From Chiloscyllium plagiosum (taxonomy: Eukaryota), in NCBI RefSeq assembly GCF_004010195.1, contig NC_057718.1, positions 101,156,629 to 101,220,628 on the forward strand: a DNA stretch of 64,000 nucleotides, given 5' to 3'. The notes below the pieces were generated by a model. That model saw only the letters and a program-made list of their open reading frames with translations, was not told the origin of the DNA and did no database searches. Numbering within the stretch: the stretch's first letter is position 1; each line of letters starts with the position of its first letter. Below are positions 2,116 through 63,572 of the stretch, one piece after another. A program made the position numbers and the translations under genes.

Positions 2116-2347
2116 TTGAGGGGAAAGTGAGGTCTGCAGATGCTGGAGATCAGAGATGGAAATGTGTTGCTGGAAAAGCGCAGCAGGTCAGGCAGCATCT
2201 AGGGAACAGGAGAATCGACGTTTCGAGCATTAGCCCTTCTTCAGGAAGGGAGATTCCTGAAGAAGGGCTAATGCCCGAAACGTCGATTCTCCTGTTCCCT
2301 AGATGCTGCCTGACCTGCTGCGCTTTTCCAGCAACACATTTCCATCA
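2116..2347. mobile_element. palindromic Penelope pLTR-derived insert (family A) with two antiparallel hammerhead cores
   Basis: Inverted arms around ~2250; 14-bp TSD TAGTTATTTAATCT at 2102-2115 and 2348-2361; arm matches the pLTR attached to the GIY-YIG fragment at 42143-42600. Confidence 0.85.
2249..2292 (+). ncRNA. minimal type-I hammerhead ribozyme motif
   Basis: GGAGATTC-CTGAAGA-A-GGGC-TAAT-GCCC-GAAA-CGTC-GATTCTCC; stem I 7/8 paired, stem II 4 bp. Confidence 0.75.
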
Positions 2348-2473
2348 TAGTTATTTAATCTCTTTGCTTTAGCTTTAAAAATCCCGTAACATTTTCCATT
2401 CTGTCGGTGTGTTTTTTTGTATCTCCCTTTAAGAAAGAATGCAAGATCACACCTTTGCAGCACTACAAAATGA

Positions 2474-2650
2474 GTTTGAGTTTGATTTATTGCTGTCACA
2501 TGTACCGAGATACAGTGAAAAGTGTTGTTTTGCGTGCTCTACAGGCAGATCATACTATACAAAGGGCATCAGGGTAGCAGAGCATAGTACAGTGTTCCAG
2601 CCACAGAGAAGGTGCAGAGAGAGAGAGAGATCAGCATTAACAATGTTGAA
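2474..2650 (-). mobile_element. Rex1/Babar LINE 3' tail
   Basis: Same tail as the coding Rex copy at 40615-41200 (TGATTTATT..GTCACATGTACC.AG.TACAGTGAAAAG). Confidence 0.7.
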
Positions 2651-2797
2651 GCAAGGGTGATGAAATACGCTTAGACACAGTGAGTAGTTAGGTTCTGGAA
2701 TGTGCTGCCTGGAAATGTGCTGGAGGCAACTCAGGTTCAACTGAGTCATTCAAGAGGAGCTTTGGATGATTATTTGGAGAGTCATGCTGAGTAGGGA

Positions 2798-2962
2798 TGT
2801 AGAGTCAGAGATGTACAGCATGGAAACAGACCCCTTCAGTCCAACTCGTCCATGCCGATCAGATATCCTAAATTAATCTCGTCCCATTTGCCAGCACTTG
2901 GCCCAAATCTGTTGAAATCCTTTCTATTCATGTACCCACCCAGGTGCCTTTTAAATGTTGTA
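2798..2962 (-). mobile_element. CR1/HER1 LINE 3' end
   Basis: Minus translation ITTFKRHLGGYMNRK...GPSAGKWD plus conserved 3' UTR. Confidence 0.85.
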
Positions 2963-3049
2963 ATGGGTGGAAAGGCAGGAGATTGGAACTCGGTTGTGGA
3001 GCCAGTGCAGGAATGATAGGCTGAGTGGCCTCCTTCTGAACCATAATAA

Positions 3050-3272
3050 ATCATATGGAGTTATACAGCATAGAAATAGACACATCAGTTCAACTCAAAC
3101 CTACCGATCAGACATCCCAATCTGACCTAGTCCTATTTGCCAGCATTTGGCCCATTTCCCTTATACCCTTCCTATTCATGTATCCCTCCAGATTCCATTT
3201 AAACAGTGTAATTTTACCAGCCTCCACCACTTGCCCTGGCAGCTCATTCCATACATGCACCACCCTCTGCAT
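3050..3272 (-). mobile_element. CR1/HER1 LINE 3' end
   Basis: MQRVVHVWNELPGQVVEAG...YMNRKG in ORF 3108..3404. Confidence 0.85.
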
Positions 3273-3284
3273 GACTCTGTGACT

Positions 3285-3672: not shown

Positions 3673-3729
3673 TGCAACCCCTGACTTTTCATCCTCAAGT
3701 TTTAATTTGTCTGATTTAATTTTCCTGGA

Positions 3730-6070: not shown

Positions 6071-6175
6071 ATTGGATGAATATATCCACAATGATGGACT
6101 GTTGGAGAGCTGGAGGTTATTGAACAGTTTAGCCTGTTTCTAGAAGCAAAAGTTTTAATTGCCCTTAATTGCTAG

Positions 6176-6380
6176 TCAGAAGTCACACAACACCAGGTTA
6201 TAGTCCAACAGGTTTATTTGAAATCACAAGCTTTTGAAACGCTGCTCCTTCATCAGGTGAACGTGTCAAAGGGGCAGCGCTCCGAAAGCTTGTGATTTCA
6301 AATAAACCTGTTGGACTATAACGTGGTGTCATGTGACTTCTGACTTTGTCCACTCCAGGCCATCACCAGCACCTTCACAT
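6176..6380. mobile_element. palindromic pLTR-type insert (family B), hammerhead cores decayed
   Basis: Arms CACACAACACCAGGTTATAGTCCAACAGG / CCTGTTGGACTATAAC; degenerate TSD CTTAATTGCTAG (6164) / CTTAATAGTTAG (6381). Confidence 0.8.
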
Positions 6381-6419
6381 CTTAATAGTTAGAACATCTT
6401 CCTCCGTATGGGGAGTGGA

Positions 6420-7530: not shown

Positions 7531-7599
7531 AGGAATGAGATTTTGTCAACAAGAAGCTCAGTGGCCTATGAGAAGTAAACAACCTCTGTCTTTATGAGC

Positions 7600-16730: not shown

Positions 16731-16794
16731 GGTTCTGTTTGGCTTATCTCTTTATCTGAAGACAGATCTATTTTCAGCATTGCTTCGCCTGAGG

Positions 16795-16836
16795 TCCACT
16801 GAAGATGTTACCAGGTAAGGTAACGAAACGTCTGGA
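16795..16836 (+). ncRNA. minimal type-I hammerhead ribozyme motif (family H)
   Basis: TCCA-CTGAAGA-T-GTTACC-AGGTAA-GGTAAC-GAAA-CGTC-TGGA; perfect 4-bp stem I and 6-bp stem II. Confidence 0.8.
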
Positions 16837-16997
16837 AATGACCCTTTTAGCTCAGCGAGCAAACCTACATCCATGGATCTGTCAATTGGGGATTCTTGGG
16901 CTGTTGCAATGTAGCCTTCTCCATTTCCGATCCTCCTTTTAGGATGGTGAGTTTTATGCAGAAAGTCTCTGAATCTCAAATAGCTACTTTTCCTTTT

Positions 16998-17123
16998 GCT
17001 ATAAATTCTGAGAGTTACAATTGTATCCCCCACAACCACCTGATGAAGGAGGGGCGCTCCGAAAGCTCGTGCTTCCAATTAAACCTGTTGGACTATAACC
17101 TAGTGTTGTGTGATTTTTAACTT
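16998..17123 (+). mobile_element. single-arm family B insert with hammerhead at 17037-17071
   Basis: CAC-CTGATGA-A-GGAG..CTCC-GAAA-GCTC-GTG followed by CTGTTGGACTATAACCT. Confidence 0.8.
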
Positions 17124-17689
17124 TTCTAAGGCAGGTTATCTAGTCTGCTACTGCTCTTGTTTGCCATATCCTTATGTTCCTCTCTCATACAAATCCAAAA
17201 TCTTTTATATGTACAAATTGGGTCGGGTGGCCTTTCCCTGAATGTGTTGCTGGCTTGGTGTCTCCAGTAAAGCAACTTACGTTCTTTGCATTGTCCCCTA
17301 CTGTAGGCATTCTCCTTTCTTTGCAATGCAGTCCATCCAAAATGGTCAACATATAAACGTTTGGCCAGTCAATAATTAATATTTTGGATAACATTGTTGT
17401 AAGACTTTTTTTTGGGTTGCAAGTGGTCCTGTAGAACCCTTGGCAATTGCAGCTGCTCTGTCAGTGTTGCCAAAGCCAAGAGATTTTCAACTGTGTCTTC
17501 TGTGCAGGATATTTAGTTGGGAGTGAGTAAAAGTGGACTATTTCCTAGCACTGCCCTTGGGAAGGGGAAGGAACCAGCAGCAGCTGGTTGCAAAGGACAA
17601 AAGAGGTGAGGGTATAGGATGCCTTATTGTGGGTCTTCCACAAGGGAAGGTCCAGCCACAGTCTGTGGTTACTGGCCCTCTGCCACCAG

Positions 17690-18273: not shown

Positions 18274-18349
18274 CTTAAAAATGTGTTGCTGGAAAAGCGC
18301 AGCAGGTCAGGCAGCATCCAAGAAGAAGGAGAATCAACGTTTCGGGCAT
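18274..18349 (-). mobile_element. truncated family A arm
   Basis: AAAATGTGTTGCTGGAAAAGCGCAGCAGG...ACGTTTCGGGCAT; short TSD ATTAGTG. Confidence 0.75.
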
Positions 18350-19019
18350 ATTAGTGGCCACTAGTTCAGTATGTACAGCTGCCAACTAAAGTACAGGAAG
18401 ATCCCACACACAATCAACAGACTGATGTGCTTTCGGTTTCCCTGATGCACTTTGTAGGGTACGATCTACCTGTAGAGCACACAAAACAATACTTCTCACT
18501 GTGTCTCGGTACAATAGTAAATCAAGAAGTGTATCTGAGAATGCAAAGTGTGAAACATGTCTTAAGGTACGATAAATCCAAGTCTTCATTTGTTGTTGAA
18601 CATTTTACTAGAACTCAGTTCATAAGCTTAAGAATTTTAAAAGTGTCCAATGTTTTGCCTTCTGCTATCCTGGTTAAACATTTATACTCAGCTTATCTGC
18701 CCCTCTGAGCTCAGGTTGCTATTTTGTGGTGTCAGTGAAGGTCACAATACACTAGAATCTGATATCACAAACAGTGCAGTGATCGCTGGTTTTGACGTTG
18801 CTGTTGTAGAAAGCCAGGTGTCTTTGGAACCTCCATTTCCACGGTCTCTGCCTTAATATAACACAGTCGCCCATTGTGTAAGGGTTGCACTTTAATTAAA
18901 TCATTGTTTGAACGGCCACAAATTTAGAAAAAGGAAACAGTGTTTTCAGAAGGTATTTACAAAGTGTGACTGCAGTATATGGCACCACATAGGGTAATTT
19001 TGAAATCAGTTCTTTCTCG

Positions 19020-23059: not shown

Positions 23060-23190
23060 TAATTTGGAGATGCCGGTGTTGGACTCGGGTGGACAAAGTT
23101 AAAAATCACACAACACCAGGTTATAGTCCAACAGGTTTAATTGGAAGCACCCACTAGCTTTCGGAGCCATTTTTGTGTGATTTTTAACTT
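23060..23190. mobile_element. family B palindrome with deleted centre
   Basis: 12-bp TSD TTCATATTGTAA at 23048-23059 and 23189-23200. Confidence 0.8.
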
Positions 23191-25532: not shown

Positions 25533-25568
<36 letters not shown>

Positions 25569-26390: not shown

Positions 26391-26476
26391 AGAAAGATGA
26401 AGGGGGTTTTAATGGCCATGAAACTGAAGCCTCAGTTCAGGGAGTTTGCGTTACACTATTGGCATTGTGTACAGTG

Positions 26477-26607
26477 AGGAGAAAGTGAGGTCTGCAGACG
26501 CTGGAGATCAAAGCTGAAACTTTATTGCTGGAACAGCACAGCAGGTCAGGCAGCATCTAGGGAACAGAAGATTCGACGTTTCGGGCACATGCCCTTCTTC
26601 AGGAATC
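26477..26607 (-). mobile_element. single-arm family A insert
   Basis: 11-bp TSD TGTGTACAGTG at 26466-26476 and 26608-26618. Confidence 0.85.
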
Positions 26608-29269: not shown

Positions 29270-30058
29270 AGGCTGGGACTGTTTTCCCTGGAGGGTTTGA
29301 GGCTGAATAGGCTGGGATTATTTTCCCTGGAACATCGGAGGCTGAGGGGTGACCTTACAGAAGTTTATAAAATCATGACGGGCATGGATAGGATAAATAG
29401 CCAAGGTCTTTTCCTTGGGGTGGGAGAGTTCAGAACTAGAGGGTGTAGGTTTAAGGTGAGAGGAGAAAGATTTAAAAGGGTCCTAAATGGCAACTTTTTC
29501 ACACAGAGGGTGGTGCGTGTATGGGCTGAGCTGCCAGAGGAAGTGGTGGAGGCTGGTATAATTACAACATTTAAAAGGTTAAAAATCACACAACACCAGG
29601 TTATAGTTCAACAGGTTTAATTGGAAGCACTAGCTTTCGGAGCGACGCTCCTTCATCAGGTGGTTGTGGAGGACACAATTGTAAGGCACAGAATTGCTAT
29701 AAATTCTGATGAAGGAGCGACACTCCAAAAGCTAGTGTGCTTCCAATTAAACTTGTTGGACTATAACCTGGTGTTGTGTGATTTTTAACTTTGTACACCC
29801 CAGTCCAACACCGGCATCTCCAAATCATAACATTTAAAAGGCATGTGGATAGGTATATGAGTAGGAACGGTTTAGAGAGATAAGACCATAAGACATAGGA
29901 GTGGAAGTAAGGCCATTCGGCCCATCGAGTCCACCCATCATCTGGACTCCCTGGTCATCAGGCCAAATGCTGGCAAAAGGGACTAGATTGGTTTAGGATA
30001 TCTGGTCAGCACAGTTGAGTTGGACTGAAGAGCCTGCTGCAGTGTTGTACATCTCTAT
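29270..30058 (+). mobile_element. CR1/HER1 3' end with nested inserts at 29579-29828 and ~29882-29935
   Basis: [18 protein letters not shown]...VVEAGIITTFKR; resumes after the TSD. Confidence 0.9.
29579..29828. mobile_element. family B palindrome; intact minus-strand hammerhead at 29628-29662
   Basis: 13-bp TSD AACATTTAAAAGG (29566-29578, 29829-29841); CAC-CTGATGA-A-GGAGC-GTC-GCTCC-GAAA-GCTA-GTG on minus. Confidence 0.88.
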
Positions 30059-31431: not shown

Positions 31432-31442
31432 GTGAGTTTTGG

Positions 31443-31641
31443 GAGAAAGTGAGGGCTGCAGATGCTGGAGATCAGAGTCAAGAGTGTGGTGCTGGAAAAG
31501 CACAGCAGGTCAGGCAGCATCCGAGGAGCAGGAAAGTCAATGTTTCGGGCATGAGCCCTGATGAAGGACATTCCTGATGAAGAGCTCAAGCCCGAAACAT
31601 CGATTCTCCTACTCCTCGGATGCTGCCTGACTGGCTGATTT
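31443..31641. mobile_element. family A' palindrome
   Basis: 10-bp TSD TGAGTTTTGG (31433-31442, 31642-31651); CTGATGAAGAGCTCAAGCCCGAAACATC core. Confidence 0.82.
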
Positions 31642-32006: not shown

Positions 32007-32619
32007 GTAGTAATGTCACACCACAGAATTTGTCACTGAGTCGCTTGTGGCATTGTTGAGATGGATGTGGCCAAAAGCTTGACAAAACTCTAAGTCTTAA
32101 AGATATTTTAAATAAAAGTACAGAGGCTGAGAGATTAAGGGGTGGAATTCTGGTGCCTAGGGTGCAACAGGTCAGGAGTAGAGGAGCACACCCTCTTGGA
32201 GGTTCGTGGGAGTTGGAGGAGATTGAAGAGAACCTTGAAGTGAATTTTGAAAGCAAGGATGAAAATTTTAATATTGAGCCATTGCTGGACTAGGTGCCTG
32301 TATGCATCATTGAGCATAGGGAAACAGAAAATGCTGGTGATCACAGCGGGTCAGGCAGCATCCATGGAGAACCCAGCAAACTAACAGCTCAAGTCAAGAT
32401 GGCTCGTCAGAGCAGAGGGATGAACAGAACCTGATCCGAGTAAAAACAGGGACAGCAGAGATTTTGGGTGATTTTAAGGGTTCCACGTTAATGCAGGTAG
32501 AATGTTGTAGGTCTGCCAAGGGAATGTTGAATTAAGTTATTCTTCCTCATCTACTACATCTCCAAATCCAGAGCTGCTTGGTCGTACACAATATGAGTGT
32601 TGCTAAATAAAGAGACGGG

Positions 32620-37044: not shown

Positions 37045-38135
37045 TTCTATAGAGTCAGACAGTCATACAGCATGAAAACAGACCCTTCAATCCAACTCGG
37101 CAGGTCTGGAAGCATCTGTAAGGAGAGAAAAGAGCCGACGTTTCGAGTCTGACTGACCCTTTGTCAAAGCTTTGACAAAGGGTCAGTTAGATGCGAAACG
37201 TCAGCTCTTTTCTCTCCTTACAGATGCTGCCAGACCTGCTGAGATTTTCCAGCATTTTCTCTTTTGCCTTCAATCCAACTTGTCCACTCCAAATCATGTT
37301 TCCAAACTGAACTAGTCCCCCCTGCCTGCGTTTGGCCCGTATCCCTCCAAACATTTTTTTTTCATGTACTTATCCAAATGTCTTTTAAATGTTGTAACTG
37401 TACCTGCATTCACTCTTCCTCAAGGAGTTCATTTTACATGTGAACCACTCTCTGTAAAAAAAAATTACCCCTCATGTCCTCCTCAAAACTTTCTCCTCTC
37501 ACCTTAAAAAATATGCCCGCTTGTTTCAAACTCTTACACTCAAGGGAAAAGGGGCATGGATAATGCTATTCACATTATCCATGCCCCTCATGATTTTATA
37601 AACCTCTATAATGTCACCCCCTCAACCTCCTACGCTCCAGTGAAAAAAGTCCCACACTATCCAGCTTATTTTTATAACTCAAACCCACCATTCCTGGCAG
37701 CATCCTGGTAAATCTTTTCTGACCCTCTCCAGTTTAATAATATCCTTCCCGTAACAGGGTGATCAGAACTGGACACACAAGCGGCCTCACCAATGTCCTG
37801 TACAACCTCAACATGGCATTCCAATTGCTGTACTCAAAGGTCTGAGCAATGAAGGCAAGTGTTCTAAACACCTTCTTAACCACTCTGTCTATCTGTGATA
37901 CCAACTTCAAATAACCCCTGGGTGTCTCTGTTCTACAACAGCATCCAGGGCCCTACCATTAAATGTGTAAGTCCTGTCCTTGTTTGTTTTGCCAAAATGC
38001 AGTACATCACTTTTATGCAAATTAAACTCCATCAGCCCACGGACCCAATTGATCAAGACCCCTTTGTAATCATAGATGACCTTCTTTACTATCCACTACA
38101 GCACCAACTTTGGTGTCATCCACAAACTTACTAAC
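37045..38135 (-). mobile_element. CR1/HER1 3' region
   Basis: HER1 tail, RT C-terminus, and TTTGGTGTCATCCACAAACTTACT (SKFVDDTK on minus). Confidence 0.88.
37098..37266. mobile_element. family C palindrome with U3-A8 hammerhead variants
   Basis: 14-bp TSD CCTTCAATCCAACT (37084-37097, 37267-37280); symmetry axis at AGCT 37168-37171. Confidence 0.85.
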
Positions 38136-39559: not shown

Positions 39560-40085
39560 TTCAAAAAATTCATTCACGGGATACGGGCATTGCTGGCTGG
39601 GCCAGCATTTATTGCCCATCCCTAATTGCCCGGAGGGCAGTTAAGAGTCAACCCACCTTGCTGTGGGTCTAAAGTCACATTTGGGCTAGACTGGGTAAAG
39701 ATGGCAGTTCCCGAAAGGACATTTGTAAACTAAATGAGTCTTTCCGATAATCAACAATGGATTCATGGTCATCGTCGGACTCTGAATTTCAGATCTCTTT
39801 CACTGAGTTCAGATCCTACCATCTGCCATGGCAATGTTTGACACCGGGACCACAGAACATTACTTGGGTCTCTGGATTAACTGCTGGAAAAACACAGCAG
39901 TTCAGGCAGGATCCTTCATTCCCGATGAAGGTCTTATGCCTGAAACATCGACTCACCTGCTCCTTGGATGCTACCTGACCTGCAGTGCTTTTCCAGTGTC
40001 ACCCTTTTCGACTTTGATCTCCAGCATCTGCAATCCTCACTTTCTCCTAGTCCAGCGGTAATACCACTAAGCCATTGCCTCCCCC
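39560..40085 (-). mobile_element. SINE family B interrupted by family A' palindrome at ~39882-40047
   Basis: GGCCAGCATTTATTGCCCATCCCTAATTGCCC...TAATACCACTAAGCCA. Confidence 0.8.
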
Positions 40086-42142: not shown

Positions 42143-42600
42143 GGCTGAAAATGTGTTGCTGGAACAGCGCAGCAGGTCAGGCAGCATCCAGGGAACAGAA
42201 GAATCGACGTTTCGGGCATAAGCCCTTCTTCAGGAATGAGGAAAGTGTGTCCAGCAGGCTAAGATAAAAGGTAGGGAGGAGGGACTTGGGGGAGGGGCAT
42301 TGGAAATGCAATAGGTGGAAGGAGGTCAAGGTGAGGGTGATAGGNNNNNNNNNNNNNNNNNNNNNNNNNNNNNNNNAGTGTTGAGCCACATGGTGGTTGG
42401 GTTGGTTGGTCCGGGTGTCCCAGAGGTGTTCTCTGAAATGCTCCGCAAGTAGGCGGCCTGTCTCCCCAATATAGAGGAGGCCACATCGGGTGCAGAGGAT
42501 GCAATAGATGATGTGTGTGGAGGTGCAGGTGAATTTGTGGCAAATATGGAAGTTTCCTTTGGAGCCTTGGAGGGAGGTGAGGCGGGAGGTGTGGGGGACA
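42143..42600 (-). mobile_element. Penelope-like element 3' fragment: GIY-YIG endonuclease plus pLTR with hammerhead (42202-42237)
   Basis: Minus frame FHICHKFTCTSTHIIYCILCTRCGLLYIGETGRLLAEHFREHL; downstream ATTC-CTGAAGA-A-GGGC-TTAT-GCCC-GAAA-CGTC-GATT; N gap at 42345-42376. Confidence 0.88.
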
Positions 42601-42644
42601 AGTTGAGGTACACACTGAAGTATGCCAAAATATTACATCACAGA

Positions 42645-42852
42645 CTGGGGGTCAGATGGCTGGTTTATGATGCAGAGTGATGCTAACAGTGCAGGTTCAA
42701 TTCCTACACTGGCTGAGGTTACCGTGACAACCCCACCTTCTCAACCTCACCTGAGGTACGGCGACCCCTCAGGTTAAACCACCACCATCAGAGTCTCTCT
42801 CTGTCTGTAATGAGGGAACAGCTGTCTGGGATTATGGCAACTTTACCTTACC
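42645..42852 (+). mobile_element. SINE family E
   Basis: B-box GGTTCAATTCC; CCTCAGGTTAAACCACCACC; tail CTGGGATTATGGCAACTTTACC. Confidence 0.7.
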
Positions 42853-43814
42853 TCATAGAGGTGAGCAATTCTTCTACTGTTACAAGTCTTGTCACAAGTT
42901 CCCAATGAAAGCCGCATTTAGTAGGCAGAACTAAATACAGCAAGGCCTGTTGTCAGCAGCAATTGCTGCTTAGAAAAGACATTGTCCTGCCACATGCCTT
43001 TAGCAACCTGCTTATTGTGCCGTGTCATATTCCACTGTGGAGTGGTCCAATGCATTGGCAAACTAATGTACTGCCCCTTGGAGAGGATTTCACCTGAAAC
43101 GTTCACTTCTGCACCTCCAGATGCTGCCTGCCTTGCTGTGTTCTTCCAGCCTCCTGCCTATCTGCCTTAGGTGTATTGGGGCAGAGATGAGATTCTCATT
43201 ATGTAGTAACCAATGTGTTTTTATAAACACAGAGATTCTTGAGGGGAGAAATGTAAATTCCATCAAAGTGCAACTGAACCCCCATCGACCAACAGAAAAA
43301 TAATAGTGGAGGGAATCAGAACAAGGCATTTAGCTCTTTCGTCTCCTCAACTCTACCACCCTCTCTGATCTCTGCACTTCTTCAAATGTGATTGTGTTCA
43401 CATATTAGTTTTCATCATTCCAACATTACAAGGTACTCAGCTGCAAGCTCTGGATTGATCTCTCTAAACATCTCTACCTTTCTTTATCTATCTACCTACT
43501 CCTCTCTCTCCTTCCCTCTCTCTCTCTCTATCTCTCTCTTTTTGTGTTCTCCTGTAAGATGCTCCTGGACACTTGGATTTTCGATCCAGCTTTTGGTTGG
43601 ATCACCTGATGTGGCTCAGTCTGAAGTTGTGTTTGGTAATGGCTACACTGAGGTGCCTTGGGATTTTTTTTCAGGTTAAGAGGTACTTGATGAATGCAAG
43701 GTTTACTAGTGAACTAGTGTTCTGATAGTAAGGACTGGGAGAAGAGGGGAGAGCTGAAAGTTCACCCCTCTTTCTGCATCATTACATTGGCCAACATCCA
43801 CCCCTCAATCAACA

Positions 43815-44850
43815 CGGAAACATAGAAAAGGAACTGGAGTAAGCCGTTCAGCCCTATGAGTCTGCTATACTATTCTGGTCATCCAACTCAGACCCCTGTT
43901 TCCACTTTCTCCTCATACCCTTTGATCCCTTTATCCCCAAGAACTATATCCAACTCCTTCTTGAAAACATTCAATGGTTTGGCTTCAGCCACTATCCATG
44001 GCAAAGAATTCCAGAGGCTCACCACTCTCCTAAATGAAGAATTATTTCCTCATCTTGGTCCTAAACGGCCTACCCTGTATCCTTAGACTATGACCCCTGG
44101 TTCCGGACTCCCCAGTCATCGGGAACATACTTCCTGCATTTACCCTGTCTAGTCCTGTTCGGATTTCCCCCCCCCGCCCCCCGCCACTTGTTCTAAAGTC
44201 CAGTGAATATGGTCCTAACTGATCGATCCTGTCTTCATACATCAGTCCTGGTAAACCTTCATTGTGCACTCTCCATAGCCAGAACATCCTTCCTCAGGTA
44301 AAGTTAAAAAGCACAAAACACCAGGTTATAGTGCAACAGGTTTAATTTGAAGCACTAGCTCACTCCATAACCACCTGCTTCCAATTAAACCTGTTGGAAC
44401 TATAACCTGATGTTGTGTGATTTTTAACTTTGTCCACCCCAGTCCAACACCAGCATCTCCAAATCATTCCTCAGGTAAGGAGACCAAACTTACATACAGG
44501 ACTCCAGGTGTGGTATCACCGAGGCCCTGCCAAATTGCAGCATGATAGCCCTGCTCCTGTACTCAAATCCTCTCATTCTGAAGCCCACGTCTCCTTTGTC
44601 TTCCTCACGGCCTGCTGTCCCAGGTTGTTTATTTTGAGTGACTAGTGTACAAGATCACCACAGCCTCATTGCACTTTCCCTTTTCACAATCTACCTCCAT
44701 TCAGATCATAATCTGCCTTGGTATTTGCGCTGCCAAAGTGGATAGCCTCACATCTATTCAGCTTTTACTTCACCTGACATGAACTTTCCCAATCGCTCAT
44801 ATTGTCCAAATTACACTGTAGCATCCGCCTCACAGCTCACCCTCCCACCC
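43815..44850 (-). mobile_element. CR1 3' region with family B insert at 44302-44466
   Basis: ORF 44042..44287 GLDRVNAGSMFPMTGESGTRGHSL; 12-bp TSD TTCCTCAGGTAA (44290, 44467). Confidence 0.85.
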
Positions 44851-46637: not shown

Positions 46638-46860
46638 AGAGCAAATTACTGCAGATGCTGGAATCTGAACTGAAAACAAAACATGCTGAAGATCACAGCG
46701 GGTCAGGCAGCATCCATGGAGAGAGAGCAAGCTAAGGTTTTGAGTCTAGATGACACTTCATCAGAGCATGAAGGGTCATCTAAGACTCGAAACCTTAGCT
46801 TGCTCTCTCTCCATCGATGCTGCCTGACCCGCTGTGATCTTCAGCATGTTTTGTCTTCTA
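46638..46860. mobile_element. family D palindrome, decayed hammerheads
   Basis: Arms GATCACAGCGGGTCAGGCAGCATC / GATGCTGCCTGACCCGCTGTGATC; centre ATGAAGGGTC..GACTCGAAAC. Confidence 0.8.
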
Positions 46861-47339: not shown

Positions 47340-47935
47340 GATGGCCTAGTGGTATTATCGGCAGACTGGTATTCCAGAGAGCGAAAGTGAGAACTGCAGA
47401 TGCTGGAGATCAGAGTCAAGATTAGAGTGGTGCTGGAAAAGCACAGCAGGTCTTTCAGCATCCGAGGAGCAGGAGAATTGACGTTTCGGGTAAAAGCACT
47501 TCATCAGCAATGAGCCCATCCTGATGAAGGGCTTTTTGCCCGAAACATCGATTTTCCTGCTCCTCGGATGCTGCCTGACCTGCTGTAATTTTCCTGCAAC
47601 ACTCTAATCTTGAAACTGGTAATCCAGAGATCCAGGTAATATTTTGGGGAACTCTGGTTTGAATCTCACCATGACAAATGATGGAATTTGTAATCAATGA
47701 AAATCTGGAATTATGACTCTAATGATGATCATGAAACAATTGTCAGGAAAAACCCATCTGGTTCACTGATGTCCTTTAGAGAAGGAAATTTCCATCCTCA
47801 TCCTGGTCTGGACTACATGTGACCCCAGACCCACAGCAATGTGGTTGACTCTTAACTGCCATCTGGGCAATCAGGGGTTGGCAATGCTAAATGCTGACCT
47901 AGCCAATGATGCCAATCCTGGGAGTTAAAAAAAAG
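47340..47935 (+). mobile_element. SINE family B with family A' palindrome at 47381-47614
   Basis: TSD ACTGGTA(T/A)TCCAGAGA (47365, 47615); core ATC-CTGATGA-A-GGGC-TTTTT-GCCC-GAAA-CATC-GAT. Confidence 0.85.
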
Positions 47936-50490: not shown

Positions 50491-51809
50491 GGTGCATGGA
50501 AATATTTTGTTTTTGTTTTCCCCTCTGAGTGCTCTGTGCATGGATTCCAAAGCCATGACCATTACTACGTGGGAACGACACTGCCTGCGAGTTTGTCACA
50601 TAGCGTTCTGACCTGGAACTGTGCTGTTCCTTCAGTGTTACTGGGTCAGAATTGTGGAGCTCCCTACCTAACCGCACTGTCGGTCTAGGACTGCAGTGGT
50701 ATCTGAAGGAAGCTCACCATCACCTTCTCTGGGGACAGGGAAAAGCCCTTCACCTGGACAGCTGCATCTGTGAATGAATGAAAATAATCAATTTATGTTT
50801 TTAAAAAAATTGGAAGGAAAATATCTCAAATTGATAACGTAGTAGTTTGAGCATAACAAATCTTTCCAAAGATTTGACAGCAGGAGATATTGCGCCTGAT
50901 TCTCAAATCGTCCTCGTTTTGGAACCATTTTGAAAGCTGAGATAATGATCCTGGAGGTCACTCTGATGTTTCTGGGACAGTTTGACATTTTCAAAGGGTC
51001 AGTGCGAAATGGAATACAGATCTCACATGCTGCCAGTTAATAGTGCATGGGAAGGTTGTTAGGGGCCCCACGCAGTGATGTCTTACCCTTTTTTACAGAA
51101 AACACTGGTTTACAGTAGTGTCCAGCTGCCTGCGTCTTCCAGGGATATTTCTTTTCATGGTTTGTAGAACTGGAACCCCGTGGACAAAATGTGCTAGGTC
51201 AATTGCTGTGCCTTCACATCACGTTCACGGCCACCCTCCCCCCATCTGAACTTTTTGGACTCAAAATGCTAACTCTGTTTCTCTCTCCTTCGATGCTGCC
51301 AGACTTGCTGAGCTTTTCTGTTTTTGTTTCCAACATCCAGTATTTTGCTTTAGTTTCTCCATCTCATGTTCTGCCGCTCCCTCTGAGTGGCTGCCTCCTC
51401 CTAGAGTAGTATAGAAACTGGCCCTTCGGCCCACCATGTCTAGGCTGACCAGCAAACACCAAGCTGCACGAATGCCATTTACGTAGCCCTGGCATTTTAA
51501 GTACTCATCCGGTTGTTTCTTCAATGTGAGAGTACATGCCTCTACCATCCTCTCAGGCAGCGCATTCCATATTTCTACCATTCTCTCGGTGAAAGAAATG
51601 TTTTTCACAGATCTCCTTTACACCACTCGCTCCTTGTCTGAAATATCGGCCCTCTGGTCTTAGACAAGTCTGCCATGGGGAAGAGATGCTCATGATTCTC
51701 AGCAAGGAAGTGGCAGCTCCCAACATGGCCACTGCCCACCTTTGCACTGACCTCGGGCAGGGAGCTCCCCACCTCCATGAGGCATTTGGCACCTCTGGTT
51801 GAGCACCAG

Positions 51810-52060: not shown

Positions 52061-52112
52061 GCACCTCTTCTCATTGTCCTTACTCCAACCCCCACACACC
52101 AGGCCCTGTTAT

Positions 52113-53786: not shown

Positions 53787-53963
53787 TCAGAAGTTAGGGC
53801 ACCAGGTTATAGTCCAACAGCTTTATCTGAAATAACAAGCTTTGGGTAAACCTGAGGAAAGGTCAGCGCTCTGAAAGCTTGTGATTTCAAACAAACCTGT
53901 TGGACTATAACCTGGTGTGGTGTGTCTTCTGACCCCAGTCCAACACCGGGCACCTCCACATCA
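53787..53963. mobile_element. family B palindrome, decayed
   Basis: CACCAGGTTATAGTCCAACAG / CTGTTGGACTATAACCTGGTG arms. Confidence 0.75.
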
Positions 53964-55867: not shown

Positions 55868-56780
55868 TTCATAGAGTCATAGAGTCATATAACATGGAAA
55901 CAGACTCTGTGGTCCAACCAGTCCATGCTGACCACAATCCCAAACTAAACTAGTCCCACCTGCTGGCTCCCGGCCCATATCCCTCCAAACCTTTCCTATT
56001 CATGTACTTATCCAAATGTCTTTTAAACATTATAATTGTACCCACGTCCACCATTTTCTCAGAATGTTCACTCCATATTCGAGCAAACCTCTGTGCAATA
56101 AATTCGCCCTCATGTCTTTTTTAAATCTTTCTCCTCTCACGGCTCCCGGCCCATATCCCTCCAAACCTTTCCTATTCATGTACTTATCCAAATGTCTTTT
56201 AAACATTATAATTGTACCCACATCCACCATTTTCTCAGAATGTTCACTCCATATTCGAGCAATCCTCTGTGCAATAAATTTGCCCTCATGTCTTTTTTAA
56301 ATCTTTCTCCTCTCACCTTAAAAATGTGCCCCCTAATAGTATTGTGATATGACATTGTTGTACTATCTCTATCTTTTTGTATTTTGGTATTTTTTTAATA
56401 TATAGTTGTTTTGTAAAATATTTGAAAAAGATTTAAATAAAAACATGTGTATAAAAAATAATGTGGAGAGAAGACAACTGCTACTAACTCTATCTATACC
56501 CCTCATTATTTCATAAACTTCCATCCAGTCACCTCTCAACCTTCTACGCTCCAGTCCAGCCTACCCAACCTTCCTTTATAACTCAAAGTCAAAAATCACA
56601 CAACACCAGGTTATAGTCCAACAGCTTTCGAAGCACTAGCTTTTGGAGCACTGCCCCTTCATCAGGTGGTTGTATAGTCTATGGAGAATTTATAACTCAA
56701 ACCCTCCATTCCCAGCAACATGCTGGTAAATCTCTTCTGAACTCTCTCTAGCTTAATAATATCCTTCCTATAACAGGTTC
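55868..56780 (-). mobile_element. CR1/HER1 3' end with 176-bp tandem duplication and family B arm at 56588-56688
   Basis: (ATAGAGTC)2 tail; TSD TTTATAACTCAAA at 56575 and 56689. Confidence 0.88.
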
Positions 56781-57225: not shown

Positions 57226-57428
57226 GCGAAAGTTGGGACTGGAGATCAGAGTCAGGATTAGAGTGGTGCTGGAAAAGCACGGCAGGTCAGGCAGCATCCG
57301 AGGAGCAGGAAAATCGACGTTTCGGGCAGGATTCCTGATGAAAGGCGTTTGCCTGAAACGTCGATTTTCCTGCTCCTCGGATGCTGCCTGACCTGTTGTG
57401 CTTTTCCAGCATCACTCTAATCTTGACT
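57226..57428. mobile_element. family A' palindrome inside L2 remnant; hammerhead at 57331-57366
   Basis: TSD CTGAAG(G/A)AG(G/A)TTACAGG (57209, 57429); CTGATGA-A-AGGC-GTTT-GCCT-GAAA-CGTC. Confidence 0.82.
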
Positions 57429-58075: not shown

Positions 58076-59505
58076 ATGGACGCAAAGTCTAATTCAGCCT
58101 CAGTTATTTGCTAGGGAGTCACCCAAAGGATGGCATCTCTGACAGAGCAATACCCCTCCAGTGCCCCACTGCAAATGGGAACTGGATCCACAACCTTTGA
58201 ATGCAGCCCCTTCAATGACACCACGGAAGTACATCATTGCTGCCAATGATGCTGCAGCCTTGTGTGTGCAGCCAGTGAGTATAGAGTAAAGAGCTGATGA
58301 CCGTTGATTGGAATGAGGTTGTTTCATGGCCTGGCAGGAATTCAGACAGGAAAGGAAATATGGGAAGAATTAGTGATGGGATAATTTGCATCTTAATGAA
58401 GCCCGATTTTATTGTTCAAGTTATCTTTCCTGAGTAAATCTCCATTTCTGAATGCAACAGACAAACATTACTGCAGCCAACACAACAGAACTTTGCCATT
58501 CACAGGAAAGATTAATGAAGCGTTCTGTTTTGCTGAATTTCTACAGTGTCTTATCTGTTGGCTGATTCCATGATGGCAGAATTGACAGCAGCTGGATTTC
58601 CACTGCGATTCTCTTCAACTTTGTTGCGTGAGATCAGCCAGGCTTTATCACTGCCCTTGTTTCTTTCTGCTTACCTTACTTTGAGTGCACACGTATGCGC
58701 TTTTCATTGGTTTTTGGATGATCTCCCAGCTTTCAATCTTCCAGTCAGCAGGCTTCTGATGCTAGGGAGTTTAAAAGGATCCTTAAGTACTTGCAAATTA
58801 TTGTTATGTAACTAAGATTCCCTTACAATCTCGAATGTAGCAGTAACGAGTAAAACTGCATTGACAGGAAAAGATAAAATTGGGAGAAAAGTTGCTCATT
58901 AAAATGCTATCTGAATTTTGAATTAGTGCATCTTGCTCCATTAGGCCATTGAAAAGCAGAAAATGCAACTGCCAACTAAAAAGTAAAATTACTCCTGCCA
59001 AAAATATTTTGAAGTGTTATAAAGCACCGTGTAACCTTATCTTTTCCATGTTGTAGAAACTCTTCAGATGGTGCTTAAAATATGGAATATATTTTCATTT
59101 TATTGTGATTACTTGAGAATCTTAATGTTTGGGTAAATGAGCTGTCATCCTTTGTGATTTAAGTAGCAGATTTGCATTTCTTTCGATTGTCTCAGAACAT
59201 AGTGATTTATTTTAATGCATACCACAAGCAATTCTAGTTGAAGATTTCCCCATTAAAAATTCCACACTTGTGCAACTGACACAGTTCCAAAAAACATCAT
59301 CAGGAAGGCAGTTGGACACAGTGTTCAAAATGTGACCAATTGAGTTGTGATATTCTTAGGAAGGCCAGTATAACTTGGCGGTGTATGGGTGGGTTATGGA
59401 TAGTGCCTTGCACCGAAGATATTGAAGATATTCAATTGTTACTACTCATTCCAGTGTGTACATTTTCCAAGAAGATGCTGCAGTAAAGTTGTCAACAGAA
59501 TTACA

Positions 59506-59664
59506 AAGTTAAAAATCACACAACATCAGATTATAGTCCAACAGGTTTATTTGGAAGCACTAGCTTTCGGAGCGCTGCTCCTTCACCAGGTGGTTGGGGA
59601 CTATAACCTGGTGTTGTGTGATTTTTAATTCTGTCCATCCCAGTCCAACACTGACACCTTCACA
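59506..59664. mobile_element. family B palindrome with partial deletion
   Basis: TSD CAACAGAA(T/C)TACA at 59493 and 59665. Confidence 0.8.
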
Positions 59665-60261
59665 CAACAGAACTACAGTTCAACAAGATGGTCTAATGTG
59701 GGACCAAGGAAAGAGGACAATTTAAAAGGTATACACTGATTCAGTAAAGAATTCTGGGTAATCCAAGATGGAGGACTGGAAAAATTGTGGCTGGAAGAGC
59801 TGTTCCTTTTTGAGGCATTTTCTGTTTTGTAAGCTGCTGCATTGCTTTGGAACTTGGGGAAAAAATTGTTTTTCCATGTGTATTAACTATTCACACTCTG
59901 CTCCTACCTTCCAATTTTCACCTCTCCTCTCATGGTACTAGGTCCTTGCCCAAGACTGCCCCATCCAAATATCTTAATTAGTAGCTAGCAAGCCTCTCAA
60001 CTTTAAGGCAGGAGGAAAGTTTCATTTTGATTCTGGCAATGGGCCTGGACTTGTAACGAGAAACAGTGAAAAGTTGCCCCTCATTTGGGACCCATGGGTG
60101 CCTGAAGTGAGTACATACGTTGAAATATTTAAGCAATCTGTCATGACACATCGCTGGAGCTGGTGGGATAGGAACCTGTGCCACTTGGCTCAGAAGTAGG
60201 GACACCAGCACTTGCTTCACAAGAGCCCTCGGAGTGCACTGTATGTGTTGCCTTACTCACA

Positions 60262-60765
60262 CATAGAGTCATAGAGATGTACAACACGGAAACAGACACC
60301 TTGAGTCAACTCATCCATGCCGACCAGATATCCTAAATTAAACTAGTCCCATTTGCCAGCAGTTTTCTCATGTCCCTCTAAACTCGTCCTATCCATATAC
60401 CCATCCAGATGCCTTTTAAATGTTGCAATTGTACCAGCCTCCACAACATCCTCTGGCAGGTCATTCCATACACGCACCATCCTCTGCATGAAAAAGTTGC
60501 TCCTCACAACCCTTTTAAATTTTTCCTCTCTCACCCTAAACCTATGCCCTCTAGTCCTGGACTTCCCACCTCGGGGAAAAGACATTGACTATTTATCCTA
60601 TCCATGCCCCTCATGATTTTATAAACCTTTATAAGGTCACCCCTCAGCCTCCGATGCTCCAGGGAAAACAGCCCCAGCCTGTTCAATCTCTCCCTATAGC
60701 TCAAACTCTCCTACCCTGGCAACATCCATGTAAATCTTTTCTGAATCTTTTCAAGGTTCACAACC
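60262..60765 (-). mobile_element. CR1/HER1 3' end
   Basis: SRTRGHRFRVREEKFKR...WNDLPEDVVEAG. Confidence 0.9.
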
Positions 60766-61204
60766 CTTGAGTGTAAGATCTGTACTCAATTGTTTGCCTT
60801 GCATTGATGAAGAACACTGGCACTTATCTATGTGACTGCTATCACCAGAACAGTGGAGATTGTCAATGTGTGAATTAGGAACCAGAGGAGGCCATTTAAC
60901 CTCTTGAGTCGACCCCACTGTCCAACAAGATCATGGCTGATCTGACTCCGGACTCAAGTCCATAGTCCCACCTGTCCACAATAACCTTTGACTCCTTTGT
61001 TCGTCAGCAATTCATCTACCCACACCTTAAAAATATTTAAAACCTCTGCCTCCATTGCTCTCGAGAAATTCTGCTTTCACATCGATATCCAAAAGATGGC
61101 ATCTTCAACCGTGCTGCACTCCTTCAGTGTTGAACTGAAGTATCAGTCTGGTTGAACGTTTCTCATGTCTCTGGAGTAGGACTCAACCCCCTGAGCTCAG
61201 GCTG

Positions 61205-61710
61205 CCTCAGCCAGGCCTGCAGGAGCCAACCTGACCTCCAGTCACCTCCCATGTTAATTCCCCTTCCCACTCCCTCTGACATGACCATCCTTGGCCTCCT
61301 CCATCGCCGCAAAGAATCAAACTGCAAACTGGAGGAACACCTCATCTTCTGCTTGAGCAGCCTACAGCCCAGATGACTCAACATTGAGTTCTCTTATTTC
61401 AAATAACATCCCCCCCTCCGATTCCCTTCGCAGCCCCGCTCCCTCCCTTCCACTCCTCCCAGCCACCTACAGGATTCATTCCTCCCATTAACCAACCAGG
61501 TTGTACCCTCTACCTGTCTTCACCTATCCCCACTTCACCACCCTGCCCCCACTCCACCCCCTTTATCTGCAGCTCACCTTTCACCCAACCCAGTCATGAA
61601 GTTACACCCAAAACGTTGACTTCTTCGCCTCCTGATGCTGCCTGGCTTGCTGTGTTCTTCCAGCCTCCTGCTTGCCCTCCTTGGATTCCGGCATCTGCAG
61701 TTTTTTTTTG
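61205..61710 (+). mobile_element. Penelope-like 3' fragment (ORF C-terminus plus pLTR) inserted in a DeuSINE head
   Basis: SDMTILGLLHRRKESNCKLEEHLIFCLSSLQPR*LNIEF; pLTR ..AAAACGTTGAC..GATGCTGCCTGG..GCATCTGCAG. Confidence 0.7.
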
Positions 61711-62728
61711 TCTCTAACTGAGCTAAGGCTGACAAGTAGGAGGCTGGAAGAACGCAGCAAGCCAGGTAACATCAGGAGGGGCAGAAGTTTTTATTATTGC
61801 AAAGTAACTGTTCGTATCACCGCAAAGTCTCTTCAAAGGACACCCATTTTTAGGAAATTCTCTGCCTTGTCTCTAACTGAGCTAAGGCCGACAAAATTCT
61901 AGAAACAAATTGGAAAAAGTTTTTTCAATGTTGGGCAAAGTTTATTGCAAATGTGAAACCTTGGAGTGAAGAGGATAAAACAGCTCCAACATGGAGACCA
62001 GTTCAATCAACAGTGGGACAAGAGCAACGAGGAACACATTGTGGAGCTAGCAGCTTCATTTTTTCCTCATTCCATAACTTTTCGGATCACGTTCAGCTTT
62101 TCTCTCTCTGCATCATGGATGCACGTGTGCAAAGGATGGAGGTGCGTTCGTTGTATGTGGTATCAGCCTGGGAAAACTCAGCTCCACCAGCAGCAGGAAG
62201 GCAGCCGATCTAATGTGAATTCCCCAGTTTCTGTCTGCAAGCGTGCAGAAAGCTTGGAAAATAGATCCCCACTGCAACCTTTTGCTCTTTCACTGAATAT
62301 GGATGATGCTTCAGCCTGAGGGGTGTGGAAACCTGAGAAAGCTGCTGTCCAAGCTGAACAGCAGAATCTGTTCAAATAACTACACCGTATTGTTCTGTGG
62401 CAAAATCACAGGGGAGGGGAAGCGCAAGCATACCAAAATGTTTTTCATTTTTGTTCAGCTCTTTTTATAGTGACATAATTTTATTTAAAATGCTCTTTCT
62501 TGTCTCGTGAAATAACTTGATTCCACAAGGGAAGGCAGTACAATTTGAGATGGCCGTAGCTTGCCAGAATATGGTTTGTGTGGGAAATGGGACTTGCCAG
62601 AGACTTAAAGATTTGGCCGGAGCATGATGGTCTTATTCTTAAGGCTTGTTTCTACCTGGTCACGTCATGACAAACAGTCAGGTCACATGCTGCATTATTC
62701 ATGCCCAGGTCAACAGTGATGTGGAGGC

Positions 62729-62878
62729 TGAAAATGTGTTGCTGGAAAAGCGCAGCAGGTCAGGCAGCATCCAAGGAGCAGGATTCTCCTGTTCCTTGGA
62801 TGCTGCCTGACCTGCTGCGCTTTTCCAGCAACACATTTTCAGCTCTGATCGCCAGCATCTGCCGTCCTCACTTTCTCC
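62729..62878. mobile_element. family A palindrome (ribozyme centre deleted) at the end of a family B arm (62882-63005)
   Basis: 15-bp TSD CAGTGATGTGGAGGC at 62714-62728 and 62879-62893. Confidence 0.85.
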
Positions 62879-63007
62879 CAGTGATGTGGAGGCGTCCATG
62901 TTGGACTCGGGTGGACACAGTCAGAGGTCACACAACACCGGGTTATAGTCCAATGGGATTATTTGAAATCACAATTTCAGAGCGCTGTCCCTTCATCAGG
63001 TGAACCT

Positions 63008-63572
63008 GATAGGGGTGTACAAGATGATGAGAGACATAGATAGAGTGTACAAAGTTAAAAATCACGCAACACCAGATTATAGTCCAACAGGTTTATTTGG
63101 AAGCACAAGCTTTCAGAGCGCTGCTCCTTCATCAGATAACTCCACTTGATAAAGGGGCAGCGTTCCGAAAGCTAGTGTTTCCAAATAAACCTGTTGGACT
63201 ATAACCTGGTGTTGTGTGATTTTTAACTTTGTACACCCCAGTCCAACACTGGCACCTCCTCATCATAGATAGAGTGGATAGCCAGAGACTTTTTCATAAG
63301 GTGAAAATGGCTATCATGGAGGGGCATAAGTTTAAGGTGGATTGGAGGAAGGTTTGGGGGAAATGTCAGAGGTAGGTTCTTCACTCAGAGAGTGGTGGGT
63401 GCCTGGAATGCACTGCCTGCAGTGGTAGTAGAGTCAGAGACATTAGGGACATTTAAGTGATTCTTGGATAGGCACATGGAAGTTAGTACAATGGAAGGTA
63501 TGTAGGTTAGTCTGATCTTAGAATAGGATAAAAGTCGACGTAACATCAAAGACCGAACGGTCTTTACTGTTC
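63008..63572 (+). mobile_element. CR1 3' end with family B palindrome at 63048-63263
   Basis: VYKMMRDIDRV / FFTQRVVGAWNALP; TSD CATAGATAGAGTG at 63035 and 63264. Confidence 0.85.

Follow-up and report, generated by a model that had tools for sequence, protein, structure and literature searches.

Short hammerhead-bearing inserts in the Chiloscyllium plagiosum genome are probably 3'-terminal products of Penelope-like elements

In this work we analysed a window of 64,000 nucleotides of the Chiloscyllium plagiosum genome, the whole stretch of DNA studied here, which is scattered with short inserts carrying hammerhead motifs. These inserts are very probably (probability about 0.88) dead-on-arrival retrotransposition products of three EN-bearing lineages of Penelope-like elements (PLEs), namely PLE-A, with sublineages A2 and D, PLE-B and PLE-C, all three of which have kept, within the 3' untranslated region (3'UTR), a hammerhead motif of the minimal type-I form. 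The finding is real and very abundant, though of a kind already known from PLEs; it goes beyond published work in copy number, family-A tails reaching at least 165,276 genome-wide, and in a sharp 5' end that lies at the head of the hammerhead, not at its cleavage site.

Results

Hammerhead motifs

An earlier note on this DNA had listed ten near-intact hammerhead cores, and a sequence check found all ten, each at its coordinates and on its strand. Eight of them match the strict form of our descriptor, made up of CTGANGA, at most one extra base, a helix II of 3 bp or more, GAAA, NN, T and H, while 37133-37171(-) and 63143-63177(+) match only with a relaxed one that allows U3-A8 as well as C3-G8 as the core pair. 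Three further descriptor sites beyond that list, 47521-47549(+), 53852-53880(+) and 63107-63135(-), bring the total for the window to 13, 11 of them strict; the number expected by chance, from 200 dinucleotide-preserving shuffles of the window, is a mean of 0.155 (0.055 strict), with a maximum of 2. None of the window sites was reported by the Rfam hammerhead models at E up to 10. Genome-wide, exact-pattern counts for four families gave 61,357 cores for family A, 15,599 for B, 257 for C and 1,257 for D, the reversed-pattern control giving 0 for each.

The helix II pairings described earlier (GGGC/GCCC, AGGC/GCCU, GGAGC/GCUCC, GGGUC/GACUC and GUUACC/GGUAAC) are all legible in the sequence, and direct reading also confirmed the ACGU and AGCU tetrads of helix III. 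One or other tetrad is present in 15 of 16 parsed representatives, a G10.1-C11.1 pair in 14 and the extra base after A9 in all 16; helix I is 3-6 bp long in this set and differs in sequence between lineages. The U3-A8 core variant occurs in 93 of the first 100 family-D copies among the matches listed. The extra base, the G10.1-C11.1 pair and the tetrads match those given in the accessible text of Cervera and de la Pena (2014; PMC4209133), and the earlier proposal of PLE-type minimal hammerheads of type I is supported.

Insertion loci and families in the window

Where the earlier estimate was about 30 inserts, one per 2 kb, we count 26 loci, one per ~2.5 kb, made of 39-40 arms (15 loci of A/A2/D, 10 of B and 1 of C). 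The listed spans sum to ~4.1 kb, roughly 6.5% of the window, and 14 of the 26 loci are head-to-head pairs.

2119..2334: family A head-to-head pair; left arm (-) with 3' tail, core 2217-2244; right arm (+) with short 3' end, core 2257-2284; one TSD of ~14-18 bp, TAGTTATTTAATCT..., flanks the locus, and the tail is on one arm only
6174..6371: family B head-to-head pair, cores decayed
16770..16873, +: family C 3' end, the window's sole C copy; core 16799-16832, helix II 6-7 bp, 3' end ~41 nt past the cleavage site
16994..17125, +: family B copy with 44 nt of PLE-B 3'UTR upstream of the hammerhead; core 17040-17068, short 3' end
18275..18351, -: family A fragment, 5' truncation within the hammerhead
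23062..23167, -: family B fragment, truncation within the hammerhead, long 3' end
26476..26606, -: family A solo unit with tail, 96% identical to the long reference copy; core 26575-26602; begins at ATTC, 4 nt before C3; TSD ACTGTACAC(A)
29572..29827: family B head-to-head pair; left arm with 34 nt of 3'UTR and core 29631-29659(-), right arm with long 3' end
31442..31637: family A head-to-head pair, cores decayed
32342..32368, -: family A fragment of 27 nt
37077..37254: family D (A relative) head-to-head pair; core 37137-37167(-), U3-A8 replacing C3-G8
39882..40048: family A head-to-head pair; left arm of 33 nt only, right arm from head to tail, core decayed
42146..42713, -: longer 5'-truncated PLE-A copy; GIY-YIG ORF fragment 42378-42713, N run 42345-42376, then 3'UTR; core 42206-42233, short 3' end
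43093..43153, +: family A fragment without core
44300..44466: family B head-to-head pair, both arms truncated within or after the core
46649..46859: A/D-like head-to-head pair, core decayed; long perfect hairpin with a sub-threshold miRNA-like Rfam match
47383..47613: family A2 head-to-head pair; core 47521-47549(+), ACAU replacing ACGU
51285..51318, +: family A fragment
53800..53949: family B head-to-head pair; core 53852-53880(+)
56584..56673, -: family B solo unit beginning at the hammerhead head, core decayed
57246..57427: family A2 head-to-head pair; core 57335-57362(+) with A10.1-U11.1; left arm truncated within helix II
59502..59651: family B head-to-head pair
61607..61667, +: family A fragment without core
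62727..62878: family A head-to-head pair without core; right arm begins at reference position 429, the first base past the cleavage site
62899..63003, -: family B solo unit, core decayed
63045..63265: family B head-to-head pair; cores 63107-63135(-) and 63146-63174(+), the latter with T3 and A8; right arm with long 3' end

The view that at least five families have little or no primary similarity was overstated. It stands for families A, B and C, which gave no BLAST cross-match to one another, and falls for A, A2 and D, which have a downstream GATGCTGCCTGACC-type block in common; there are therefore three unrelated lineages, with sublineages.

Link to RT/GIY-YIG open reading frames

The PLE origin of the inserts, also put forward earlier, is supported by longer copies of the A, B and C lineages, which extend upstream into an RT/GIY-YIG ORF. 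At locus L011, an ORF at 3070-3819(+) matches Pfam GIY-YIG, with its stop at 3820 and a family-A core at 3978; at locus L044, which has a 12-bp TSD, a minus-strand ORF of 893 aa matches RVT_1 and GIY-YIG and has a family-A core downstream. In tblastn this 893-aa ORF matches the window at 42378-42713(-) with 63% identity (aa 711-822), upstream of core 42206-42233, as well as family-B loci L053 and L056 (36-45%) and family-C loci L065 and L068 (36-38%), where the matches again sit upstream of same-strand cores. The PLE-A core begins 155 nt past the stop codon of the RT/GIY-YIG ORF, and the element ends ~60 nt (short) or ~97 nt (with tail) past the predicted cleavage site. For the EN region, a first look gave 186,612 candidates genome-wide (among 150 scored, all are at least 90% identical and 146 are without a stop), against 16,182 for the N-terminal 200 aa, which indicates a gradient of 5' truncation. 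A true pLTR, that is, a hammerhead-bearing repeat upstream of the ORF, was seen in no full-length copy, and seven oriented N-terminal loci (L072-L078), six of which contain N stretches, have no hammerhead repeat within 1.5 kb upstream.

Discussion

Origin of the inserts

The anatomy of the inserts (5' truncation, inverted partner, one TSD and optional tail of ~36 nt) matches the PLE insertion signatures published in the accessible parts of Craig et al. (2021; PMC8557442) and Frangieh et al. (2024; PMC11167929). The 3' ends fall into two clusters, in family A with ~49 arms at reference 475-501 and ~47 at 511-540, and in family B with 25 arms at 483-498 and 13 at 516-532. Locus L056, outside the list above, is a head-to-head pair with a single TSD and a tail on one arm only, and 3,534 family-A head-to-head junctions genome-wide keep both heads intact. 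In a mechanism modelled on the biochemistry of an Anolis PLE (PMC11167929), the PLE protein would nick the target and prime reverse transcription internally on its own RNA, at either of two close sites, hence two 3' ends ~36 nt apart. Synthesis would then proceed toward the RNA 5' end and, as most cDNAs would be short, the genome would receive the last 60-140 nt, hammerhead and tail. Priming on both target strands would let two cDNAs join head to head into a palindromic pair with a single TSD. The inserted cDNA being a short terminal piece, the hammerhead would be a passenger in these copies. In active elements, by contrast, the sequence comparison says that it is probably under selection, because it keeps the same place in lineages whose ORFs are only 36-45% identical in amino acids, and helices I and II have changed yet still pair.

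Sharp 5' ends

Plain random 5' truncation leaves one feature unaccounted for, the sharp end at the hammerhead head. Of the non-full family-A arms, 31 of 76 begin at reference 393-400 (ATTC being 397-400), and 18 of 45 family-B arms begin at 389-401; within the window, the arms that begin at the head are 7 of 16 in family A and 8 of 15 in family B. Arms beginning at the cleavage site, in contrast, number 2 of 104 in family A and 0 of 46 in family B. There are solo copies with a TSD whose very first bases are ATTC (such as window 26476-26606, L002, L007, L021 and L051), and head-to-head junctions are often at ATTC, 9 reading GGAATTCC and 8 GGAAT(G/C)ATTCC among the first 50 loci listed. A rare micro-tandem unit, starting at ATTC and reaching 5-25 nt beyond the cleavage site, resembles template jumps from an RNA 5' end. 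These observations would fit a discrete, repeatedly made retrotransposition unit of ~95 or 131 nt, headed by the hammerhead and not formed by random truncation. A short RNA, produced by a transcription start within the PLE terminal region or by processing, would begin a few nt before C3, hold the RT entry site and be copied to its very 5' end, a PLE-dependent, SINE-like behaviour; PLE promoters have indeed been reported within terminal repeats (accessible text of PMC6765202, citing Schostak 2008). We nevertheless consider such a unit rather unlikely. Identity between solo units and the 3' ends of long copies with RT and EN reaches 100%, so that the solo units form no separate lineage, which gives no support to the non-autonomous units of the earlier note, and family C shows no such 5'-end pile-up. 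The string TCATTCC, which may resemble an initiator element, has no equivalent in family B. Finally, in an X10 run, a polyA single-cell library poorly suited to the question and hence a weak test, no read ends pile up at the hammerhead head or at the cleavage site.

Other origins

It is very doubtful that the inserts are retrozyme-like, as the earlier note had it; such elements would be tandem units that are transcribed, self-cleaved, circularised and copied back into DNA. The hammerhead is of the same general type, and a 2026 preprint (Li, Clavereau and Pollet 2026; 10.64898/2026.07.22.740005) connects, in its accessible text, the terminal repeats of PLEs with the non-LTR retrozymes of vertebrates; the single chondrichthyan in its sample is reported to have retrozymes. 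There are also 135 same-strand neighbours at 55-110 nt genome-wide, some in rare arrays with a period of 38-54 nt, but these represent ~0.2% of the 61,357 intact family-A cores. Retrozymes are described as head-to-tail tandem arrays that yield circular RNA (Cervera and de la Pena 2020, PMC7229834, and the same preprint, as far as their accessible text goes), and the arrangement of the loci refutes this reading within the window, where none of the 26 is head-to-tail. In addition, hammerheads devoid of helix III are thought to need a sense-sense dimer (PMC4209133, accessible text), which neither a lone sense hammerhead nor an inverted pair can make. What the inserts share with animal non-LTR retrozymes is a hammerhead of type I whose helix III is weak, together with the proposed origin from PLE terminal repeats.

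Recombination between direct pLTRs, as in solo LTRs, could explain solo units with discrete ends and a TSD, but is highly improbable here: the analysis brought up no element in which two direct repeats bear hammerheads, tails outnumber N-terminal candidates (at least 165,276 vs 16,182), and recombination could yield neither head-to-head pairs nor the tail/no-tail asymmetry. Fold-back or MITE-type DNA transposons, or hairpin RNA genes, with a chance hammerhead-like string can practically be dismissed, for although the palindromic pairs form long hairpins with miRNA-like Rfam matches (46671-46859, 62747-62823, 37114-37225 and 2220-2280), every match is under the gathering score, the arms are unequal with a one-sided tail, TSDs range in length from ~5 to 18 bp, many copies have a single arm, and collinearity of the arms with the 3' end of RT/EN elements contradicts this reading.

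Relation to known elements

Minimal hammerheads in the terminal repeats of metazoan PLEs were described by Cervera and de la Pena (2014; PMC4209133), whose accessible text covers many metazoans, including fishes, the coelacanth and Xenopus. The suggestion that the shark families may be undescribed therefore holds in a narrow sense only: the kind has been known in metazoans since 2014, whereas our literature search found no paper treating shark PLE hammerheads, and the present host is not among the species named in that text. The motifs described there share with ours the type-I topology, conserved core, short helix I, unpaired base between A9 and 10.1, G10.1-C11.1 pair, helix III cut to a palindromic tetrad and U3-A8 core variant; they likewise form multiple sequence families per genome with compensatory changes, and are mostly lone motifs, attributed to truncated PLEs, with opposite-strand pairs.

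Our reading of the inserts as truncated PLE products also agrees with the accessible descriptions of EN+ PLEs (PMC8557442) and of PAc, the Anolis Poseidon element (PMC11167929), in the ORF with RT and C-terminal GIY-YIG, the strong 5' truncation with an adjoining inverted 5'-truncated copy, and the lack of any sign of cleaved RNA as template. The optional extension at one end is 30-40 bp in these reports and ~36 nt here; in PAc it was attributed to two adjacent internal RT starts downstream of the hammerhead. The PAc ORF begins inside the hammerhead, with RT starts 111-118 nt into the ORF; here a tail-to-N-terminus junction pattern, which would have pointed to coding sequence after the hammerhead, gave 0 matches. 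Neither paper, in its accessible text, mentions sharp 5' ends located at the head of the hammerhead. One family-A pattern gave 61,357 cores, against ~4,000 in the coelacanth and ~9,000 in Xenopus (PMC4209133, accessible text), figures obtained with different descriptors, which limits their comparison. Our families A and B have a helix II of 4-5 bp, compared with 7-8 bp in the Schistosoma families of that text.

Hammerhead-bearing inserts and the 3' ends of Penelope-like elements

The minimal type-I hammerheads (min-HHRs) dispersed over the window sit in the terminal non-coding region of Penelope-like elements (PLEs), downstream of their reverse transcriptase (RT) and GIY-YIG endonuclease ORFs, and the PLE origin proposed for these inserts in the earlier note is thus borne out. 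At one genomic locus, L011, the stop codon of an ORF matching Pfam GIY-YIG above the cut-off is followed after 155 nt by a family-A core, with a mirror copy on the opposite strand. At a second locus, L044, an 893-aa ORF upstream of a family-A core matches RVT_1 (E 6.4e-08) and GIY-YIG (E 3.5e-04, 21.2 bits, slightly below the cut-off of 22.6); this copy is 5'-truncated and has a 12-bp duplication on its flanks. When the L044 ORF was used as a tblastn query, ORF fragments were found upstream of the window core at 42206-42233 (42378-42713, reverse strand, 63% identity) and, on the same strand as the core, upstream of family-B cores at L053 and L056 (36-45% identity) and of family-C cores at L065 and L068 (36-38% identity). 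Because ORF fragments lie upstream of the cores of all three families in the same orientation, we assign families A, B and C to three distant PLE lineages, of which they are the 3' ends. That the motif is kept at the same place, though the proteins of these lineages are 36-45% identical, argues for selection in active elements; the genomic copies of the hammerhead themselves decay.

Genome-wide, the first look at the PLE C-terminal region gave 186,612 candidates, and all 150 that were scored are at least 90% identical, 146 of them open, while the N-terminal region gave 16,182 candidates; this gradient between C-terminal and N-terminal copies is that expected of 5' truncation. A whole-genome search with Pfam GIY-YIG gave one weak match among the 150 candidates scored of 14,403. 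The proline-rich N-terminal region of PLE-A contains a 72-nt unit that also forms long tandem arrays (G000:C15:4034396-4036248, C10:5888143-5888649 and C1:58549761-58550093).

In the window, BLAST with seed units and natural long copies identified 26 insertion loci, about one per 2.5 kb, somewhat below the 30 or so inserts, at about one per 2 kb, first estimated. Family A, taken broadly with its sublineages A2 and D, accounts for 15 of them, family B for ten and family C for one. The proposal of at least five unrelated families holds for A, B and C, which do not cross-match, and fails for A, A2 and D, which share a block downstream of the hammerhead. By the sum of the listed locus spans, PLE tail ends occupy about 6.5% of the window, and they are present at no fewer than 165,276 places in the genome. 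Contigs labelled as a second organism also contain PLE-A 3' ends (223 of 1,085 pieces at least 99% alike when L031:1950-2570 was compared with sequencing run X1), and the family is therefore common to at least one other species label.

Several other features of the window were recorded. Runs of N occupy 11979-12732, 24233-24272 and 42345-42376; the third lies inside the long PLE-A copy, where it separates the 3'UTR from the ORF fragment. An unrelated dispersed repeat matches the family-B seed flank (2947-2964, 3195-3252, 8443-8494, 27994-28044, 33963-34012 and 60412-60469), and another short repeat, the start of which looks like a tRNA-derived SINE head, matches the family-C reference flank (3972-4057, 15565-15672, 20389-20488 and 21951-22060 on the reverse strand, 63871-63980 on the forward strand). 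Long CA/TG-rich simple repeats at 24868-26011 produce spurious open frames and sub-threshold mir-297 and mir-3149 matches.

Structure of the hammerhead motifs

The motifs were sought with a descriptor drawn up independently of the repeat families (CTGANGA, at most one added base, a helix II of 3 bp or longer with a loop of 3-9 nt, GAAA, NN, T and lastly A, C or T). In the window it found 11 strict sites with the min-HHR core in type-I order, C3 U4 G5 A6 N7 G8 A9 followed by G12 A13 A14 and by U16.1 H17, and 13 when the U3-A8 variant was allowed. Chance is ruled out as their origin, as 200 dinucleotide-preserving shuffles of the window gave a mean of 0.155 sites and a maximum of two, and reversed-pattern controls gave no match. 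All ten cores named in the earlier note were recovered, with positions and strands correct. The descriptor is still satisfied by 13 of about 40 window arms (an arm being one copy of a unit), the remainder being decayed or truncated.

Since MAFFT mis-registered the 3' half of family B in an alignment of 14 representatives, helices were parsed by script instead. Parsing of 16 representatives upheld what had been said of the fold. An extra base past A9, A or U, is present and unpaired in all 16, and helix II (4-7 bp) differs in sequence between lineages and keeps its pairing, as does the lineage-specific helix I (3-6 bp). The closing pair of helix II is G10.1-C11.1 in 14 of the 16, the exceptions being A2_57335, with A-U, and B_53852. 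Stem III is reduced to a self-complementary tetrad in 15, ACGU in families A, C and D and AGCU in family B, the single exception being ACAU; this palindromic 15.1-16.1 tetrad, without a stable helix III, could pair between two copies. In ViennaRNA monomer folds, families A and C form both helix I and helix II; cofolds favoured helix II swapping and were uninformative on a 4-bp ACGU helix III.

Family D is a real family: with Y3 and R8 allowed, it has 1,257 exact matches genome-wide and none to the reversed pattern. Among the first 100 matches listed, 93 are U3-A8, seven are C3-A8 and none has G8. The Rfam hammerhead families had no match in the window, either at the gathering threshold or at E values up to 10; our guess is that these models expect a helix III hairpin. 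The palindromes gave miRNA-like Rfam matches, all sub-threshold.

Cervera and de la Pena include the U3-A8 core among the traits that they list for PLE min-HHRs (PMC4209133), and all the traits parsed here, U3-A8 too, are among those listed there. This kind of element is already known (PMC4209133, PMC8557442, PMC11167929), and PLEs are named among shark repeats in PMC8455134 and PMC4350176. Literature searches on hammerhead, Penelope and shark, and on Penelope and shark transposable elements, turned up no study of hammerheads in shark PLEs. The window result is a correct annotation and not a discovery; repeat maskers may list such PLE tail ends as anonymous short or fold-back repeats. One use is that the genome offers a very large set of natural hammerhead variants, including family D, suited to activity and covariation studies.

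Insertion signatures

PLE insertions as described in PMC8557442 are truncated at the 5' end, stand next to an inverted copy that is also truncated, and have a tail of 30-40 bp at one end. The insertions studied here carry these marks of truncation, inverted neighbour and one-end tail. Twenty-six long family-A copies have their 3' end at either of two places about 36 nt apart, and this optional tail recurs in deduplicated arms as two 3'-end clusters, again about 36 nt apart, in both family A (about 49 and about 47 arms) and family B (25 and 13). In an Anolis PLE, such a tail was ascribed to two adjacent internal RT start sites (PMC11167929). Our observations thus provide genomic support, from three distant PLE lineages, for the two-start-site model of PLE reverse transcription, which was worked out in vitro on a single Anolis element.

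Head-to-head pairs account for 14 of the 26 window loci, and 3,534 family-A head-to-head junctions with both heads (the 5' side of the hammerhead) intact were counted genome-wide. At L056 and at window 2119-2334, one target-site duplication (TSD) surrounds both arms and the extension is on a single arm. In the Anolis study each of the two target strands is cut and extended (PMC11167929), which offers a ready mechanism for such pairs. An origin as a MITE or fold-back DNA transposon is rejected, as the arms are unequal, the tail is on one arm only and the TSD, about 5-18 bp, is not of fixed length.

The comparison with retrozymes made in the earlier note did not survive. A 2026 preprint reports retrozymes in one chondrichthyan; in the window no locus of the 26 is head-to-tail, and genome-wide there are 135 same-strand pairs (family-A cores 55-110 nt apart) against 61,357 intact family-A cores. 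Many of the 135 pairs are either micro-tandems of 38-54 nt or partial tandems restarting into the 3'UTR. No copy with an ORF between two pseudo-LTRs was seen among the long-copy and N-terminal loci examined, and no full-length 5' end with an upstream hammerhead was present at the N-terminal loci L072-L078, six of the seven containing N stretches.

The micro-tandem arrays are rare, with a period of 38-54 nt (G000:C6:10710400-10710611, C7:77962992-77963147, C15:63676068-63676216 and C22:20964344-20964491). Their unit is approximately the family-A hammerhead alone, from ATTC to 5-25 nt beyond the cleavage site, and they are the only arrangement seen with sense hammerheads side by side.

We also considered an ORF starting in the tail, as in the Anolis element PAc. 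Read from the ATG of GATGCTGCC, the frame stays open through the tail end, and the family D differences there are mostly at third positions. The idea was rejected, the tail-to-N-terminal junction pattern having no match and L074, one of the N-terminal loci, having an in-frame stop upstream.

5' ends of the copies and the predicted cleavage site

The 5' ends of arms were placed in the window and in the flanks of the other loci, a sample biased by the selection of these loci around cores or ORFs. Among 104 deduplicated family-A arms of this biased sample, 31 start at reference positions 393-400, at the ATTC just before C3, 16 inside the motif, two at the predicted cleavage site and 14 after it; a further 28 reach the reference start, for which they were selected, and 13 end in the ORF or UTR. 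With the same bias, 18 of 46 family-B arms start at the head of the hammerhead and none at the cleavage site. Within the window, arms starting at the head number 7 of 16 in family A and 8 of 15 in family B. In neither family A nor family B of this biased arm sample are copy 5' ends in excess at the cleavage site. Solo copies with duplications begin exactly at ATTC and are up to 100% identical to long copies, from which we infer that the hammerhead was uncut in their templates. In Anolis, too, uncleaved RNA is the main substrate, and the hammerhead there needed protein for cleavage (PMC11167929).

Transcripts were sought in run X10, a polyA single-cell RNA library. It contained 1,124 reads on the 3' end of a long copy, on both strands, and run X11 gave none; in X10, depth tracks genomic copy number and 92% of the placed reads continue into unlike sequence, which fits passive co-transcription. 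Read ends did not pile up at the cleavage site or elsewhere on the copy's 3' end, this library being a weak test.

The 5' boundary of the copies at the hammerhead head is sharp and lends itself to 5'-end mapping. One reading, which we regard as unlikely (perhaps one chance in five), is that a discrete mini-retroelement has its 5' end at the hammerhead: a short RNA, running from 4 nt before C3 to the PLE RT entry site, would be copied whole. Copying would have happened over 100,000 times, in many cases from both target strands together, and an RNA or cDNA end lying 32 nt 5' of the canonical cleavage site would be set by the PLE hammerhead or by its bound protein. The hammerhead would then have a role other than self-cleavage, which could explain its retention though cleavage seems dispensable for insertion.

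A single junction coincides with the cleavage site. At L075, a PLE-A copy (331-705, forward strand) ends exactly there, after …GAAACGTC, and is joined to an inverted internal PLE fragment (706-1926, reverse strand); as a lone case it may be due to chance.
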